Notes: generated by a model from the sequence alone, not told the origin. DNA of 64,000 bases from Candidatus Marinacidobacterales bacterium (GCA_965219415.1 CBDCNP010000002.1:1856001-1920000), one strand, 5' to 3'. Counted from the first letter of the stretch, positions 12,702 to 19,259 are shown. Numbers and translations: made by a program.

Positions 12702-13340
12702 GGTGCCCTCTCACCGTTGAAAGGCGTTTCCGGTCGTCCGCCTTCGGGCTGGATGCGCACCTCCATGCCGTCGGTGACCGCTCCCAGCGGGGAGAGCAAG
12801 ACCCTTTCTCCGTCCTCGAGCCCGTCCCGGACAACTAGCTCTTGATGTGTTTGGCGAAACACGTCGACCTCGCGAAACCGGAGTCGATTCGAAGAGTCGA
12901 CGATCAGAACGTTTCCATCGCTCCTTAAAGCGGCGCGGGGTAGGACCGCAACGTTTTCGGCAACAATTCCCTGTATCTCCGCCTCCACGAACATTCCCAC
13001 TGCCAGCGGTGGGCGCTCGCTTTGTTCGGCACGGCCGTATGGGTTTTCGATTTCCACGACCGCGTGCACCATTCGGCTGGTGCGGTCGATCTCCCCTTCG
13101 GTACGCACAATGCGGCCTTTCCATTCGAACTCTTTGCCCGCGAAATCGGCGCGAAGCCTCACCTCCGGGCCGGCCTGTGCGCGGCTTTCCCCCCGATAGA
13201 CGAGCGGCAGATCCAGATAGGCCAATTCGGTATCGGGTAAGGGAAGCCGAATCTCCGCTTTGTCGATAGCGTAGATGGTTGCCAAGGGACTTCCGACGGT
13301 CACGAACTGTCCAAGGTCGACGTTCTCTTGGCTGTGCATC
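12698..13340 (-). pseudogene. RND periplasmic adaptor (MFP), 5'-truncated
   Basis: VDLGQFVTVG, IVRTEGEIDRTSR, PLAVGMFVEAEI, GLEDGERV; N-terminal half missing. Confidence 0.8.
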
Positions 13341-13574
13341 GTCAAAACTGCTCCGCCCACGAAATCAAGGACTTACGCTCCGCTTGAATTCCGGGCCGAA
13401 GACGGCGAAACTCCGCCGCTATGCTCAACGTTGTTGTCTTCCTCGTCTCACTTGGCGTCCGTGCCATTCGGGCGATGTGTCGGCACCGCGCCGACCTGGT
13501 GTTGGAGAACGTCGCTTTGCGGCAGCAAGTGACGGCGCTGAAGAAAGAGCGCCCACGCCCACCGCTCGACGACA

Positions 13575-13820
13575 AGTGAAGTGAAACTCGGATGCTCCGG
13601 TAGTTTTTCTAAGCTCCGAAAGGGCTGCCGGAAACTGCCTCCACACCTCGCCAATGTGCTCCTTTGGAACCACGACGGCGACCCATGACTTTCGACTAGC
13701 GCGAAGATGCGGGGGCGTGTTCCGCAGGCCTGGGGATCCCGTGTCATCAACGAAGATTCCATGAATGGAACCGGCACGCTGTTGATCGATGAAGTTCTGA
13801 TATCGAAATTTAGGTTTCAC
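13575..13820 (-). pseudogene. DUF3800-like N-terminal fragment, abutting a small integrase remnant (13495-13575, + strand)
   Basis: GIFVDDTGSPG...EFHF motif; adjacent LENVALRQQV integrase N-terminus. Confidence 0.45.
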
Positions 13821-14084
13821 GGGAGAAGGAATACCACGCCTAACTACAAATTAGACTGTTTCCGCCTAAAATCCCCAACACTGCATGACGCCGCTTCCCA
13901 TCACGCGGGCCGCCTTCGTGAACGTATTGGAAGCACAGGGCTTATGGGAATCGGTCCTGGAGATATAATGCAGGAACTTGCAGGGTGCTTCCGCCATCAA
14001 GTGATGGAATGGACTCCTCCACTGACATAGACGGCATCGATGTGCCAAAGTCAGTCGAATACGCATCGAAAAGGAGGAGTCCGA

Positions 14085-15116
14085 ATGAAAGATACGACAA
14101 TCGCTGTGGATCTTGCAAAGAACGTCTTCGAGATTGCCATCTCGGGAGAAGCGGGGAAGGTGTCCAAGCAACTCCGTGTGAGTCGACCCAAATTGGTGTC
14201 GTTCTTTGCCAAACAGAGCGCTGCCACCGTGCTTCTCGAAGCCTGCGGCTCGGCTCACTTCTGGGCAAGGACGTTCCGAAGGTTGGGACACGACGTCGTC
14301 CTGCTCCCACCTCACCTCGTGAGGCCGTATCGACGCGGGAGCAAGAACGACCGCGCCGACACGAAGGCGTTGCTCGAGGCCTACAGGAACGAGGAGCTTC
14401 TTCCCGTACCCATCAAGTCCGTGCACCAGCACACCCTCGCTGCGCTCCATCGCCTGCGCTCAGGATGGCTCTCCACACGGACCGCACGCATCAATGCCGT
14501 ACGCGGGCTCCTGCGCGAACTCGGATTCATCATCCCAAAGGGCGCTCACTTCGTCGTGCCCGCCCTCTTCGAACTCGTCGAAGACGCTGATTCTGATTTG
14601 CCCGACGTGCTCCGTTCGCATCTCCGTGATGCCTGCTCCGAGATTCGAGAACTCAAGGACAAGTGCGCTAGCATCGAGCACGAGCTCAAGGCGCTCACCA
14701 AGCAGCTTCCTGAAGTCCAACGACTTCTCGCCATTCCCGGCATCGGACTTCTGGCCGCGACCGCCATCGTGGGCTTCGTCGGCGATCTTCGCCGCTTCCC
14801 ATCGGGGCGCCGCTTCTCGAGCTACCTCGGCCTAGTTCCCAAGGAAAACTCCAGTGGCGACATTCGCCGCCTCGGACGCATCACCAAGCGTGGCGACTCC
14901 TACCTCCGTATGCTCCTCACCCAGGGCGGGCGCGCCGTGCTCCGCGCGGCGAACGTCAGCAAGAGCCCGCCCGACAAGCTCCGCGCCTGGGCTCGGAAGG
15001 TCCACCGCTCGCGGGGACACAACAAGGCCGTGATTGCTGTCGCCAACAAACTCGCCCGGATCGTCTGGGCCGTCTCCACCCGCGAGAGTGAATTCCAGTC
15101 GCCGGTGGCCGCTTAG
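14085..15116 (+). CDS. IS110/IS1111 DEDD recombinase (bridge recombinase)
   Basis: IAVDLAK, LLEACG, KNDRAD (DEDD), IPGIG, YLGLVPKENSSG (catalytic Ser), LGRITKRGDSYLR, AVANKLARI. Confidence 0.95.
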   Translation: MKDTTIAVDLAKNVFEIAISGEAGKVSKQLRVSRPKLVSFFAKQSAATVLLEACGSAHFWARTFRRLGHDVVLLPPHLVRPYRRGSKNDRADTKALLEAYRNEELLPVPIKSVHQHTLAALHRLRSGWLSTRTARINAVRGLLRELGFIIPKGAHFVVPALFELVEDADSDLPDVLRSHLRDACSEIRELKDKCASIEHELKALTKQLPEVQRLLAIPGIGLLAATAIVGFVGDLRRFPSGRRFSSYLGLVPKENSSGDIRRLGRITKRGDSYLRMLLTQGGRAVLRAANVSKSPPDKLRAWARKVHRSRGHNKAVIAVANKLARIVWAVSTRESEFQSPVAA

Positions 15117-15164
15117 ATTTAGAGGCTCCACTTTCGTGTTTTCCTTTTTCCCTTCCAAAAGAGG

Positions 15165-15345
15165 CTGCGACGATACCCATCCAACTGATGGCGTACCGGT
15201 CGGACCGGCGCGGGGTCAAGCCAATAGCAACACTGGCCCTAAGAGGTCGTTCAAAGTGATTGGCTCCTCGCGCGCGGATTTTCCATCATGGCCCGGAGCA
15301 CCCAAGACGCTCCTCACTGAGGCCGAAGATACGTTTGCAGTCTGA
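15165..15345 (+). ncRNA. Predicted bridge/seekRNA (boundaries approximate)
   Basis: Two stem-loops whose internal loops match the target (15225-15234, 15254-15258) and the donor junction (15281-15289, 15327-15333). Confidence 0.8.
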
Positions 15346-15639
15346 CCCACTCGTCACGACGCGATGGATGCGCAGCTTCGATGGAAGATTTATTAAGAAA
15401 GGGGCGTGACTAGAAAGAAAGGGGCTTGACTAGAGGAGTCCAGATATGTTGCTACGCGGCTGCGGGCAGTGGTACAGGCGCGGAAGAGACCGGGTTGCGC
15501 GCCCCCGCTGGTCCAAATACTCGAACGCCCAGTTCGCCAATCTCATACAGCTCGAGTTTATGGAAGGGACAGGGACTACAGCGAGCGGCGGAAACAACTC
15601 GGACGGCCCCGGGTCATGGCGGAGATTAGCGAGCTCGTT

Positions 15640-15960
15640 GTGGGGATGGCTCAGTATCATGGAGAGCGCAACCATCAAGGGCTCGGGAACGTGTTGATCG
15701 AAGCGGAAGAATGCGTCGGTAGTCCCGACGGGAAGGTGCGATGTCGTAAGCGATTGGGCGGCTTGCTCAGTTACTACCACCGCGCCGCCGCATAGGAGTT
15801 CGGGCGCGCCAGCTGGACGGAACGGATGTTCTGGAGGAGAGCTTCTGCTCGGGGTCGCCTATCGCAGCTCCAGTGCCGCGTCGGCTGGTCCCCGCGAATT
15901 TCGACAACGCCTCTAGGATTAGAGATTTCGGCTCCGTTCGCATTTTCGGACACGACGCCG
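15640..15960 (+). pseudogene. rve integrase 3' remnant with terminus
   Basis: YHGERNHQGLGN..RKRLGGLLSYYHRAAA*, ending in TTTTCGGACACGACG. Confidence 0.75.
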
Positions 15961-16184
15961 TCGTGCTCCGCAAAGAGTCGATCCAGTGTTGATTGCGCGG
16001 TTTAGACCTGCCATGATCGGCGGCTGCTTCGCGCCGATCGAAACGACGACGCCACCGGTGCTTTCGCTGTCAAATGTTGGCGGCCACCGCGTAACCCGTT
16101 CGCGTCCTAGAGTTTGAGCCTGATTTCGAGAGGCGTGGTTTTTTCGTCGATGCCGACTGGGCCGAGTTTTGGCACAGGACGGGG

Positions 16185-16666
16185 TGCGCGGGCTCGAAGA
16201 TGACGACATCGCCAGCATCTTCGATGCATTCCAGCAAAATCGAAATTGGGAAGAGGCTCGAAGGTACGGCTTCATTTCAGCCGGCGGTGGTCGGTGGTAC
16301 ACGAAGAGCTTGGAGATGTTGCACGAAGGCGCTCGCATTTGGGTCTACATACCCGGCACAGGCTATGTTGGCGTCGGGCGAATACTTGAGAAATCGGTGC
16401 CGGTCTCCGAGTTCTTGATAGATGACGACCACGGCAAGTCTGTGCCGATCACGAACCTGCCGCTCGCGATCGCGAAAAGCAATGTCGATGATCCTGAGAA
16501 GATGGAGCATCTTGTCAAGGTCGAGTGGATCAAGACCGTTCCGGTTGCTGAGGCTGTTCTCGAGAAAGGGTTTTTTGCAAACCAACACTCTGCCGCGAAA
16601 CCAAGGGCAAAGAAGTGGCAGCATACGGTTGATAGACTTCGCGTGGGATTTGGCGTGACGGACTGA
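16185..16666 (+). pseudogene. C-terminal fragment of a NucS-associated/restriction-endonuclease-like protein
   Basis: RNWEEARRYGFISAGGG..IWVYIPGTGYVGVG..FFANQ; start codon comes from an R1 end. Confidence 0.5.
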
Positions 16667-16672
16667 CGCCGT

Positions 16673-16822
16673 CCCCGTCCTGTGCCAAAACTCGGCCCTT
16701 TAGAAATAGACCACAAATCAGCAGCTTAGACGCCCTTGGAATCCGCGCAGAATCCAGGGTATTTCGCGCCGCAGGGCTGACTTCCGACCCATGGGCTGGC
16801 GGATGAATAAATAGAAGGCACA
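16673..16822 (-). repeat. R1 MITE full copy
   Basis: Reverse complement of 598-747. Confidence 0.85.
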
Positions 16823-16928
16823 GCTACCTACCCCTGCAAAACCCCGCCAACCGCGCGGAAAATCTCACCCGTCTCTGCAGTGCCACAATTTGCCAGACTG
16901 GGTGGCGGAGGCACGCGGATTCAATCCT

Positions 16929-19259
16929 CTAGTCCGGCTGGCGTGAGGCGCGGCGCATCATCTGCTCGGCTTCTTGGGTTTTTCCAGTAAGGCGATAGGC
17001 TTCGGCGAGATTCTCCATGACCATGCGATTGTTCGGAGCCGCTCTCAAGGCTTGCTCGAAGTGAGGGATTGACTCCGAACAACGGTCGAGCCTGCAAAGT
17101 GTTGTGCCTAAAGCGTTTCTTGTCGAGGGATCTTCTCGTAGCTGGAGCGCGGACTCGAAGGCGGGGATCGCATCTTCGCCCCTACCGACTCGAGAAAGAA
17201 TGACTCCACGATCGTGGTACGCCGGAGCGAAGTTGGGATCAAGGGCGATTGCTTTGTCCAATTCGTCAAGGGCCTCCGGTATCCTCTCTGTTTCACGAAG
17301 AATCGCGCTCAAAGTGTAGTGAACTTGGAGATCTTCGGGACCAGAGCGCAACAATTTTTCCGCTTCCGGGAGCTCCCCGAGCTGCGCCACCAAATGCGCG
17401 TACTCTGCAAGGGCCTTCCCGTTCTCCGGATCTATCTGGACGGCGCGAGCATATTCCGCCCTGGCGTCGTCGAATTGCTTCAGGCCTCGATGGTAGCGAG
17501 CCAAACCGAGACGCGCATCCGTCCTTGCATCGTCGATACGAGCCGCCTCTTGGAAACGCTCGTAGGCTTGCTGCGATTGTCCTTGTGTTAGATAGAGATA
17601 CCCGAGCCGTTCATGAGCACGAGCGAAACGGGAATCCGCTTGGATAGCGGCCTTGAACTCCTTCTCTGCCTCCACCAAATTCCCTTGTCGCCACAGCAGG
17701 TTTCCGAGAGAAAGGTGAGGCAATGGTCGATCGGGGGCAAGTGCCGAGATGCGGCGGTACAAATCGATCGCCTCACCACGAGAACCCTGCTTGTTGCGGG
17801 AGATGGCCAAATGCTCCATCGCCAGAAGGTTGGTAGGGTCCTCTTCCAGAATCGCCGCCGCCTGTCGGGCGGCTTCTGCGTAGTCGCCTTGACCGATGTG
17901 ATGAATTACCCACTGAGACTTATCCCAAAGGTATAGACGATCCTTTGGATCCAAGAGCTCCTCGCCATCGTCACCGGCGTGGCCACCACCGCCCGCGTAA
18001 CCCAAGCTGCGCAGTCTGGCGAGCGTCTCCGGATCCGGTTGGTGTCGCGCAGAGAACGAACCGGGCCAACTCGCATGCAAAGACTCGAGATCGGTTTTCA
18101 TGCGTTCGGCGAGTTTCGGATCTGCGCCAAGAATATTCTCGCTCTCGTCCGGATCCTTCGATAGATCGTAGAGCTCTCGACGCGGGGCTTCGATGTACTT
18201 GAATCCGTCTTGCCGTAGTGAGACGAGGGGAGCCCATCCGAAATTCAATTGAGAGACGTAGCATTCGCTGTAAGCCGTAGCCTTCTCGGAATCTGCCCCA
18301 TCGATCAGGCCCATTAGGCTGACACCTTGCACGGTGTCCGGAGCGGACACGCCTACCAGTTCCAGGACGGTTGGAAATACGTCGACAAGTTCCACTCGCG
18401 ATGGAATGCTCCGATCCTTCGGGAGAGATGGCGAGCTCGTCAGGATGAGGGGAACCTTCAACGTCGCGTCGTAAACAAAGAAGCCATGGGTTCGCTCACC
18501 GTGCTCCCCCAGCGACTCCCCGTGATCGGCGGTAAAGACAACGAGCGTGTTCTCCATCAACCCTCGCGCCTCAATCTCCTTTAGCAGCACACCGATCTGT
18601 TCATCCACGTAGGCAATCTCACCATCGTAAGGAGACGAAGCGAAACGTTCTCGAAACGGGGAGGGGGAAGCGTAGGGCGTGTGAGGATCGAAGAGATGCA
18701 CCCATGCGAAGAACGGCCTTGCTTCGTCCGTCTCGCCGAGCCACCGCCTGAACGCATCAACGACCTCGTTCGCAGGCCTCTCCGAGAACGTACCGACCGC
18801 CTCGTCGTCTCGTGCCTGCATGCGGGCATCGTAGACATCGAATCCCTGGCCGAGGCCGAAGCTCGCGTCGAGAACATAGGCTCCCACGAAAGCACCGGTT
18901 TGATAGCCGGCCGATTGGAGTATCTCGGCGAGCGTCAACGCTTCGGGATCGAGACGAAAGTACGTGTTGTCGCGGACGCCATTGACCGGCGGAAACGTGC
19001 CCGTTAGGAGACTGACATGGGAAGGAAGCGTGACGGGAACCTGGGCGATGGCCTCTTCGAACAAGACGCCCTGGCTCGCCAGTCGGTCGATGTTCGGCGT
19101 AGCGGCGCGCGAATAGCCGTAGCACCCCAGACGGTCGGCCCGCAGCGTGTCGATGGTAATGAGAAGAACGTTCTGGCCTGACTGCGGTTGAACCTTCGGC
19201 GTACTGCAGCCACAGAGAAAACTAAAGAGAAGGAAGAAATTAGTCGCGAGGGTTTTCAT
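16929..19259 (-). CDS. Sulfatase-like hydrolase/transferase with C-terminal TPRs (lipoprotein)
   Basis: ITIDTLRADRLG, TLPSHVSLLTG, HLFDPH, TADHGE; TPR helices. Confidence 0.9.
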   Translation of the reverse strand: MKTLATNFFLLFSFLCGCSTPKVQPQSGQNVLLITIDTLRADRLGCYGYSRAATPNIDRLASQGVLFEEAIAQVPVTLPSHVSLLTGTFPPVNGVRDNTYFRLDPEALTLAEILQSAGYQTGAFVGAYVLDASFGLGQGFDVYDARMQARDDEAVGTFSERPANEVVDAFRRWLGETDEARPFFAWVHLFDPHTPYASPSPFRERFASSPYDGEIAYVDEQIGVLLKEIEARGLMENTLVVFTADHGESLGEHGERTHGFFVYDATLKVPLILTSSPSLPKDRSIPSRVELVDVFPTVLELVGVSAPDTVQGVSLMGLIDGADSEKATAYSECYVSQLNFGWAPLVSLRQDGFKYIEAPRRELYDLSKDPDESENILGADPKLAERMKTDLESLHASWPGSFSARHQPDPETLARLRSLGYAGGGGHAGDDGEELLDPKDRLYLWDKSQWVIHHIGQGDYAEAARQAAAILEEDPTNLLAMEHLAISRNKQGSRGEAIDLYRRISALAPDRPLPHLSLGNLLWRQGNLVEAEKEFKAAIQADSRFARAHERLGYLYLTQGQSQQAYERFQEAARIDDARTDARLGLARYHRGLKQFDDARAEYARAVQIDPENGKALAEYAHLVAQLGELPEAEKLLRSGPEDLQVHYTLSAILRETERIPEALDELDKAIALDPNFAPAYHDRGVILSRVGRGEDAIPAFESALQLREDPSTRNALGTTLCRLDRCSESIPHFEQALRAAPNNRMVMENLAEAYRLTGKTQEAEQMMRRASRQPD

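Follow-up and report, generated by a model that had tools for sequence, protein, structure and literature searches.

What kind of element interrupts a repeat at positions 14002-15448 of a 64,000-nucleotide (nt) stretch of a Candidatus Marinacidobacterales bacterium genome (GCA_965219415.1, CBDCNP010000002.1:1856001-1920000; the whole stretch is called the window below), and how does it find its site? We conclude with high confidence that it is an autonomous, recently active insertion sequence (IS) of the IS1111 family, guided by an RNA from the region 3′ of its transposase gene, tnp. The family and its RNA-guided mechanism are already known; what is new is one further member with a different target.

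Judged on all sequence-level criteria, 14002-15448 is a complete IS1111-family element (IS110 in the sense of ISfinder), in keeping with the original prediction of a complete IS1111-type recombinase. The tnp product matches PF01548 (DEDD_Tnp_IS110, E 6.9e-12) and PF02371 (Transposase_20, E 3.2e-24), and it scores 302.9 bits, over a cut-off of 140, against NCBIfam NF033542, ‘IS110 family RNA-guided transposase’. Its likely start is the ATG at 14085, with AGGAGG upstream, and homologues are 341-345 amino acids long. The DEDD and Ser motifs had been described as intact, and the predicted catalytic residues D9, E52, D89, D92 and S257 (within G249-L-x-P252-x4-S257-G258) are indeed invariant or nearly so in 15 homologues: across an alignment with 14 homologues (59-94% identity), E52, D89, D92 and GLxPx4SG are invariant and D9 is kept in at least 90%. 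A profile built from this alignment places these residues on the D/E/D..D and ESG motifs of two recombinases of solved structure, IS621 and ISCro4; the C-terminal domain (E 5e-16) is the sole significant part of the profile alignment to IS621, and the N-terminal stretch is weak alone. Homologues are abundant (6,447 at E ≤ 0.001 among 8,000 candidates scored), and the nearest named relative found is an ISPa25-family transposase with 45.9% identity over 99% of the protein; the element is thus a new orthologue in a modest sense, as NCBIfam already names the family.

The architecture of the element agrees with this assignment. With one TG counted, it is 1445 bp long (14002-15446, by the convention of 7 left and 3 right), and non-coding DNA covers 83 nt upstream of tnp versus 330 nt downstream. 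The terminal extension TGATGGA(A), at 14002-14009, precedes the left sub-terminal repeat, so that the left end reads as TGATGGA (7, with TG counted on the left), one unpaired position and the repeat, and the right end as the repeat, one unpaired G and ATA (3). The two repeats, TGGACTCCTC and GAGGAGTCCA, are perfect over 10 bp and match at 10 of 11 positions; those of relatives are 10-15 bp long. In its account of IS1111 features, PMC11187229 gives transposases of 330-350 amino acids, inverted repeats usually of 11-13 bp and extensions of 7 on the left and 3 on the right.

The boundaries follow from the junctions and from empty sites. The left junction reads TCAAG (13997-14001), TG and ATGGAA (14004-14009), and the right junction AGATA (15442-15446), TG and TTGCTA (15449-15454); TG is the sole sequence common to both, which bears out the proposed TG core. 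An empty site, GGTGCTTCCGCCATCAAGTGTTGCTA..., is present many times in the same genome, and because the uninterrupted target (...CATCAAGTGTTGCTA...) is common there, the boundaries are exact. A blastn search of the genome returned 36 matches to the element, comprising 26 full-length copies (positions 1-1447; 16 at 100% identity, 8 with one difference and 2 at 99.4-99.6%), four nearly full-length copies and, for the rest, fragments. Every left end is preceded by GGTGCTTCCGCCATCAAG, with one change each in two copies and unrelated DNA beyond, and, where a script located the right end (29 copies), TTGCTA follows that end in 28.

These copies also speak to the idea of a decayed or inactive element whose genomic copies are artefacts of assembly or contamination, to which we assign a nearly negligible probability. 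The assembly is reported to be 8.45% contaminated, and the repeats cluster on C2 and on one part of contig C3; but the reading frame (a 361-amino-acid frame) is open in 29 of 30 matches within copies of the element, the 16 identical copies each have unique outside flanks, and near-identical elements occupy the same target in related public genomes (L035 and L036). A few loci carry unusual joints: in L017 (G000:C3:3315125-3316855) the right end runs on into the interior of another copy, beginning at element position 1161, in L034 it is joined to the 3′ part of tnp, and L037 is a similar case. Such joints resemble the products of rearrangement between IS copies or of insertion into a sister copy.

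The insertion had been placed in the terminal repeat of another element, and the target ends do belong to other elements, namely a 1.2-kb IS1-like IS, a 244-bp miniature inverted-repeat transposable element (MITE) and further elements sharing the GGTGCTTCCGCC... end. The insertion point lies 18-20 bp inside one host terminal repeat, which is thereby split. Searching the whole genome for GGTGCTTCCGCCATCAAGTG with up to 3 mismatches gave 480 sites, 33 of them occupied, and all 33 insertions have one orientation and the same left flank. ‘A’ ends (TTGCTACGCGG...) and ‘D’ ends (TTGGTGGC/TTGGCGGC...) form at least 23 pairs that lie 1,198-1,202 bp apart, while 12 ‘B’/‘D’ pairs spaced 219-250 bp are MITEs; many ‘C’ ends and other end types make up more of the 480 sites. 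The 1.2-kb host encodes a 355-amino-acid protein whose best family is IS1, and we call it IS1-like because its family scores fall below the cut-offs (83 bits, E 2.6e-23, against NF033558, cut-off 100; 22.4 bits against Pfam DDE_Tnp_IS1, cut-off 24.1). The GGTG... start of the host repeat is presumably reminiscent of IS1. The end used is the one downstream of the host transposase gene, with the host stop codon a few bases inside the insertion point, and, in MITEs derived from this host, the end that corresponds to it; the opposite end (TTGGTGGC/TTGGCGGC) is occupied once. Splitting the host repeat probably cripples IS1-like copies, and the element may in this way shape the very large repeat load of the genome.

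Copies could instead have multiplied mainly as passengers of the host element or MITE, moved by the IS1-like transposase. Ten MITE-plus-IS composites (1689-1692 bp) and three or four composites of the IS1-like element and the IS (2625-2647 bp) retain both outer host ends, and the occupied sites at 3049796 and 4171973 have the same outside flank, which fits duplication. The IS copies are, however, 99.4-100% identical, whereas the 29 occupied sites with both ends have 21 distinct 40-nt host flanks of at least four host types, and 9 of these 21 flanks also exist empty; the window copy itself sits in a 76-bp fragment of the 1.2-kb IS1-like host (matching host nt 1-23 and 19-76 by blastn) that is immobile on its own. 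Varied host flanks around near-identical IS copies therefore point to many recent independent insertions and argue against passive spread, which we rate as highly improbable.

Autonomous insertion at one kind of site raises the question of what reads that site. By analogy with its family, we infer that the 3′ region yields an RNA that guides the element. This region is predicted to fold more stably than shuffled sequences (z -3.3 over 332 nt, z -2.4 over 156 nt), forming two modules, each a stem with an internal loop. The original prediction of a two-loop scaffold, with one loop matching the target and the other the donor junction, held up in this analysis, and its junction, stem and guide strings all lie where it had placed them. 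In the target module, AGCCAAT (15219-15225) pairs with ATTGGCT (15259-15265), and TAGCAACACT is the reverse complement of AG-TG-TTGCTA at 10 of 10 positions; in the donor module, TTCCATCAT is the reverse complement of A-TG-ATGGAA at 9 of 9. Both of these 5′ matches fall on the 5′ strand of an internal loop. Chance expectation in the 64-kb window, counting both strands, is 0.07 for the 10-mer and 0.30 for the 9-mer, and either match is therefore unlikely to arise by chance inside the 332-nt region; the 10-mer is found twice in the window, as the guide and in another copy of the target repeat.

Coordinates of the element, its predicted RNA modules and the adjoining host repeat in the window
Feature	Position	Strand	Basis or remark
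IS1111-type element, including both TG copies	14002..15448	+	26 full-length genomic copies; empty sites exist
Outer 18 bp of host element terminal repeat, GGTGCTTCCGCCATCAAG (left target flank)	13984..14001	+	
TG core, left copy	14002..14003	+	both junctions and empty site
Left sub-terminal inverted repeat TGGACTCCTC	14010..14019	+	kept in relatives
GGAGGAGTCC, tnp Shine-Dalgarno region, third copy of repeat arm	14073..14082	+	pairs with left sub-terminal repeat in 5′ untranslated region
tnp, 343-amino-acid DEDD (RuvC-like) and Ser transposase/recombinase	14085..15116	+	PF01548, PF02371, NF033542
3′ non-coding region, encoding predicted seek/bridge RNA	15117..15446	+	fold, scaffold conservation
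Predicted target-binding module: stem AGCCAAU/AUUGGCU, internal loop, top stem GGCC/GGUC	15219..15265	+	helices 4 and 5 compensatory
Predicted 5′ target guide UAGCAACACU, complementary to top strand AG-TG-TTGCTA	15225..15234	+	covaries with right flank
Predicted 3′ target guide AAGUG, same as top strand left flank plus core, pairs with bottom strand	15254..15258	+	
Predicted donor-binding module: base stem GCGG/UUGC, internal loop, top stems GGCC/GGCC and GGAGC/GCUCC	15274..15338	+	helices 6-8
Predicted 5′ donor guide UUCCAUCAU, complementary to A-TG-ATGGAA (abutted ends)	15281..15289	+	
Predicted 3′ donor guide AGAUACG, 6/7 to right end plus core AGATATG	15327..15333	+	
Right sub-terminal inverted repeat GAGGAGTCCA, then extension GATA	15433..15442	+	
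TG core, right copy	15447..15448	+	both junctions and empty site
Inner part of host terminal repeat (TTGCTACGCGG...)	15449..15504	+	blastn against full host copy

Relatives also bear on guidance by this RNA. Both scaffold anchors are present in 33 of the 80 loci taken from public genomes; adding the window sequence gives 34 of 81, 22 of them distinct, and 19 of these were aligned after three near-duplicates were dropped. Across the 19, standard pairs fill 91.3% of the pair cells of the scaffold versus at most 45.7% in slid controls, and compensatory changes occur in 14 pairs versus 6.3 ± 1.5 in shuffles, none of 500 shuffles reaching 14. Over this kept scaffold, the loop strands vary between elements and follow the flanks of their own element. 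The 5′ target guide matches its own right flank at a mean of 7.39 of 9 positions versus 4.50 for the flanks of other elements, a result that no permutation out of 20,000 equalled and that supplies the guide-target covariation named in the original prediction as a check. Scores of at least 8 were reached by 10 of 18 guides on their own flanks and by 1% of 306 cross pairs, with four guides (L042, L044, L058 and L061) matching at 9/9. The 3′ target guide covaries with the left flank in the same manner, with a mean longest run of 4.19 on its own flank versus 2.38 on others (16 elements; 0/20,000 permutations), and the 5′ donor guide tracks left-end variants such as GGATGG in L060 and L068.

Targets in the clade extend beyond IS1-like ends. 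A 57%-identical relative (L048-L055 and L065, 8 copies listed) inserts into a palindrome that resembles repetitive extragenic palindromic (REP) sequences, CTAGCAGCCCG..GACTTTCACCA/../CGGGCTGCTAG, and its guides match the left flank at 6/6 and the right at 8/9. We had considered that the whole clade might target IS1-like ends, which the REP-like palindrome (CTAGCAGCCCG...CGGGCTGCTAG) targeted by the element of L048-L065 rules out.

Within the Marinacidobacterales genome, the 480 near-identical sites amount to a natural specificity profile. Sites with the right flank TTGCTA were occupied in 28 of 115 cases, as compared with 0/184 for TTGGTG, 1/91 for TTGGCG and 0/33 for TTGGTA. Restricting the comparison to sites with the exact left flank CATCAAG-TG leaves 27/102 for TTGCTA versus 1/54 for other right flanks (Fisher p=4.5e-5). 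The positions at which these right flanks differ, +4 to +6, decide occupancy in this profile and are those covered by the 5′ target guide; position +7, outside the guide, varies among occupied sites (C, A or G).

Several results weigh against an RNA-guided element, and we gather them here. For the left flank, the guide has only 5 contiguous matches (AAGTG; 7 with one bulged A), and an effect on occupancy was not seen (27/102 for exact left flanks versus 1/10 for others, p=0.45); host type confounds left with right variants here, so that such an effect is not separable. One copy occupies a site with three right-flank mismatches (TTGGCG), and the first core position of the 3′ donor guide is mismatched, with C for the T of the element (CG versus TG). 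Covariation misses, at 5 of 9, occur in 3 of 18 relatives (L037, L056 and L060); a variant of 94-95% identity that has the same target guide occupies sites of poor match in L037 and L059, the L037 site, with its adjoining IS-like sequence, being probably a rearrangement, and in L105 it occupies a one-mismatch site, TTGGTA. An Rfam scan of 13000-17000 (E ≤ 1) returned no bridge or seekRNA family and only a chance microRNA match in tnp, and a scan of 13900-15600 for sigma-70-like promoters found none. The circle junction is absent from the matches listed in the assembled contigs of four public runs (of 24 listed), contigs that cannot decide the matter.

Other matches in those four runs, and a possible promoter formed at the junction, can be set beside these results. 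Contigs from RNA libraries (X18, X17 and X19) match parts of tnp at 90-99% identity, with DNA carry-over possible. One contig of X18 matches two stretches, 15195-15215 and 15319-15345, that are separated in it by 99 other letters, and represents the non-coding region of a relative, while one X17 contig joins 14003 to 15448, an empty site. TTGACT (15426-15431), just inside the right sub-terminal repeat, could form a junction promoter with a hexamer of the left end; there, TGGAAT (18-nt spacer) is without the consensus A at position 2, and the other -10 candidate, TATGAT, has a 13-nt spacer.

Two of the unfavourable results, the short left-flank match and the same-guide variants at poorly matching sites in L037 and L059, would suit a scheme in which the protein, or the sub-terminal repeats, read the host repeat as DNA and the RNA complementarity is incidental. 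Such a scheme does not account for guides that vary over a kept scaffold and match their own flanks, with 0/20,000 permutations for either flank, nor for the four guides that match at 9/9, and experiments described in PMC11187229 found the RNA essential in four IS1111 members. We therefore consider direct recognition of DNA very unlikely and favour guidance by RNA.

Under RNA guidance, the 3′ non-coding region would supply the RNA that directs the DEDD/Ser recombinase. Both strands of the target, CATCAAG-TG-TTGCTA, would pair with one internal loop, and the junction of the excised circle, where the ends abut as CAGATA-TG-ATGGAA, with the other; insertion in one orientation would then result from recombination at the common TG. 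Production and binding of the RNA, formation of the circle and the chemistry of strand exchange are put forward here by analogy with the published biochemistry of the family.

The dinucleotide at the right junction varies in relatives. After ...CAGATA, it is CG in 8, TG in 4, CA in 2, GG in 2, CT in 1 and CC in 1 of 18 relatives (L040-L078), whereas the left junction has TG, or GG in 2 of them. In 16 of 19 sequences, CG closes the bottom-strand guide of the target loop, and in 18 of the 19 aligned relatives the 3′ donor guide carries GATAC (GAUAC in the RNA, continuing ...ACG). Upstream of the target loop, UGAUGG (15186-15191), which copies the left end of the element, is complementary to CCAUCA (15283-15288) of the donor guide; the two covary among relatives (pairs 7/122, 10/119 and 12/117), and UGAUGG may self-mask the donor guide. 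A bolder reading, which we think unlikely, is that the two core copies need not be identical and that the mismatched first core base, together with UGAUGG masking, forms a built-in device. The left junction would then keep the donor TG, invariant as a part of the element and read by the 5′ guide of the donor loop, and the right junction the target’s own dinucleotide. If true, such a device might accept or make use of a first core base that is mismatched, and might gate the RNA, for instance so as to favour insertion over excision. As for the core itself, an alternative, ‘AA’, taken from three proteobacterial relatives, fails in other relatives and in the window element.

A further pairing involves the 5′ untranslated region, whose fold reaches -32 kcal/mol (z -4.25). 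The arm core GGAGTC, mostly as the full GAGGAGTCC, stands before the start codon in 20 of 20 relatives listed, and pairing between the left repeat and the Shine-Dalgarno region probably hides the ribosome-binding site in read-through transcripts. Also in the left end is a small hairpin, GGCATCGATGTGCC (14033-14046), which is kept in most of 20 relatives, the proteobacterial ones diverging.

The surroundings of the insertion are rich in repeats. Other ends of the repeat family occur in the window at 1870-2115, 2960, 5971 and 16058, the last a degenerate D-type end; that at 1870-2115 is an unoccupied 246-bp MITE whose TTGCTA end has one outer-repeat mismatch (GATGC...). Remnants of an rve-type (IS481/IS3-like) transposase gene flank the insertion, upstream at 13421-13573, where its first 51 amino acids are 98% identical to a full copy in L033, and downstream at 15469-15795, where an N- and a C-terminal fragment are fused. 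At least three types of element are nested at this locus. Genome-wide, the 480 ends are unevenly spread, with 424 on C3 at 2.5-5.7 Mb and 26 on the 0.28-Mb C2, whereas the 2.07-Mb C1 has only 4 and the initial 1.5 Mb of C3 only 6.

How does the element compare with systems already described? PMC11208160 predicted a bridge RNA for 93% of IS1111 elements in their right end, the location of the predicted RNA here too. A narrow literature search, outside ISfinder and supplements, found no IS1111 elements targeting IS1-family ends; a close relative may already appear among the target logos that PMC11187229 gives for over 300 IS, or in Supplementary Table 5 of PMC11208160. With the window element, the RNA-guided IS110/IS1111 recombinases gain a well-resolved natural example; as a candidate tool it is one among thousands, though its target, donor and scaffold are defined and 18 natural guide variants come with it.

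One comparison is with the bridge RNA system of IS621, of the IS110 group, whose core is CT, unlike the TG of the window element. As described in PMC11208160 and in PDB 8wt6, IS621 shares with it a target and a donor loop on one RNA, guides to both strands, a 2-nt core and catalytic residues that align; it differs from the window element, where the predicted RNA is encoded in the right end rather than the left, the guide order is reversed and the sub-terminal repeats are long. Another comparison is with the IS1111 members for which PMC11187229 demonstrates a seekRNA (ISEc11, ISPa11, ISKpn4 and ISPst6) or predicts one (ISPa25), with the top-strand match lying 5′ of the overlapping bottom-strand match. 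As far as they are described there, these elements have in common with ours a DEDD/Ser transposase of 330-350 amino acids, sub-terminal repeats, asymmetric extensions, a long downstream non-coding region, the order of the guide matches and site- and orientation-specific insertion without duplication. They are reported to use attC, REP or a short linear site, whereas here an IS1-like terminal repeat is used; and the window element comes from an uncultivated acidobacterial lineage, its RNA being predicted from sequence.

In lifestyle, the element resembles IS4321 and IS5075, IS1111-family members that Partridge and Hall reportedly described in 2003 as inserting into the terminal inverted repeats that bound Tn21-family transposons. 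Like them, it enters the terminal inverted repeat of a different transposon family at a single position and in a single orientation. The hosts differ, being Tn21-family (Tn3-type) transposons of Proteobacteria in the one case and an IS1-like IS and MITEs in the other. Beside IS4321 and IS5075 in Tn21 ends, the window element represents a second kind of parasitism of one transposon in the end of another.

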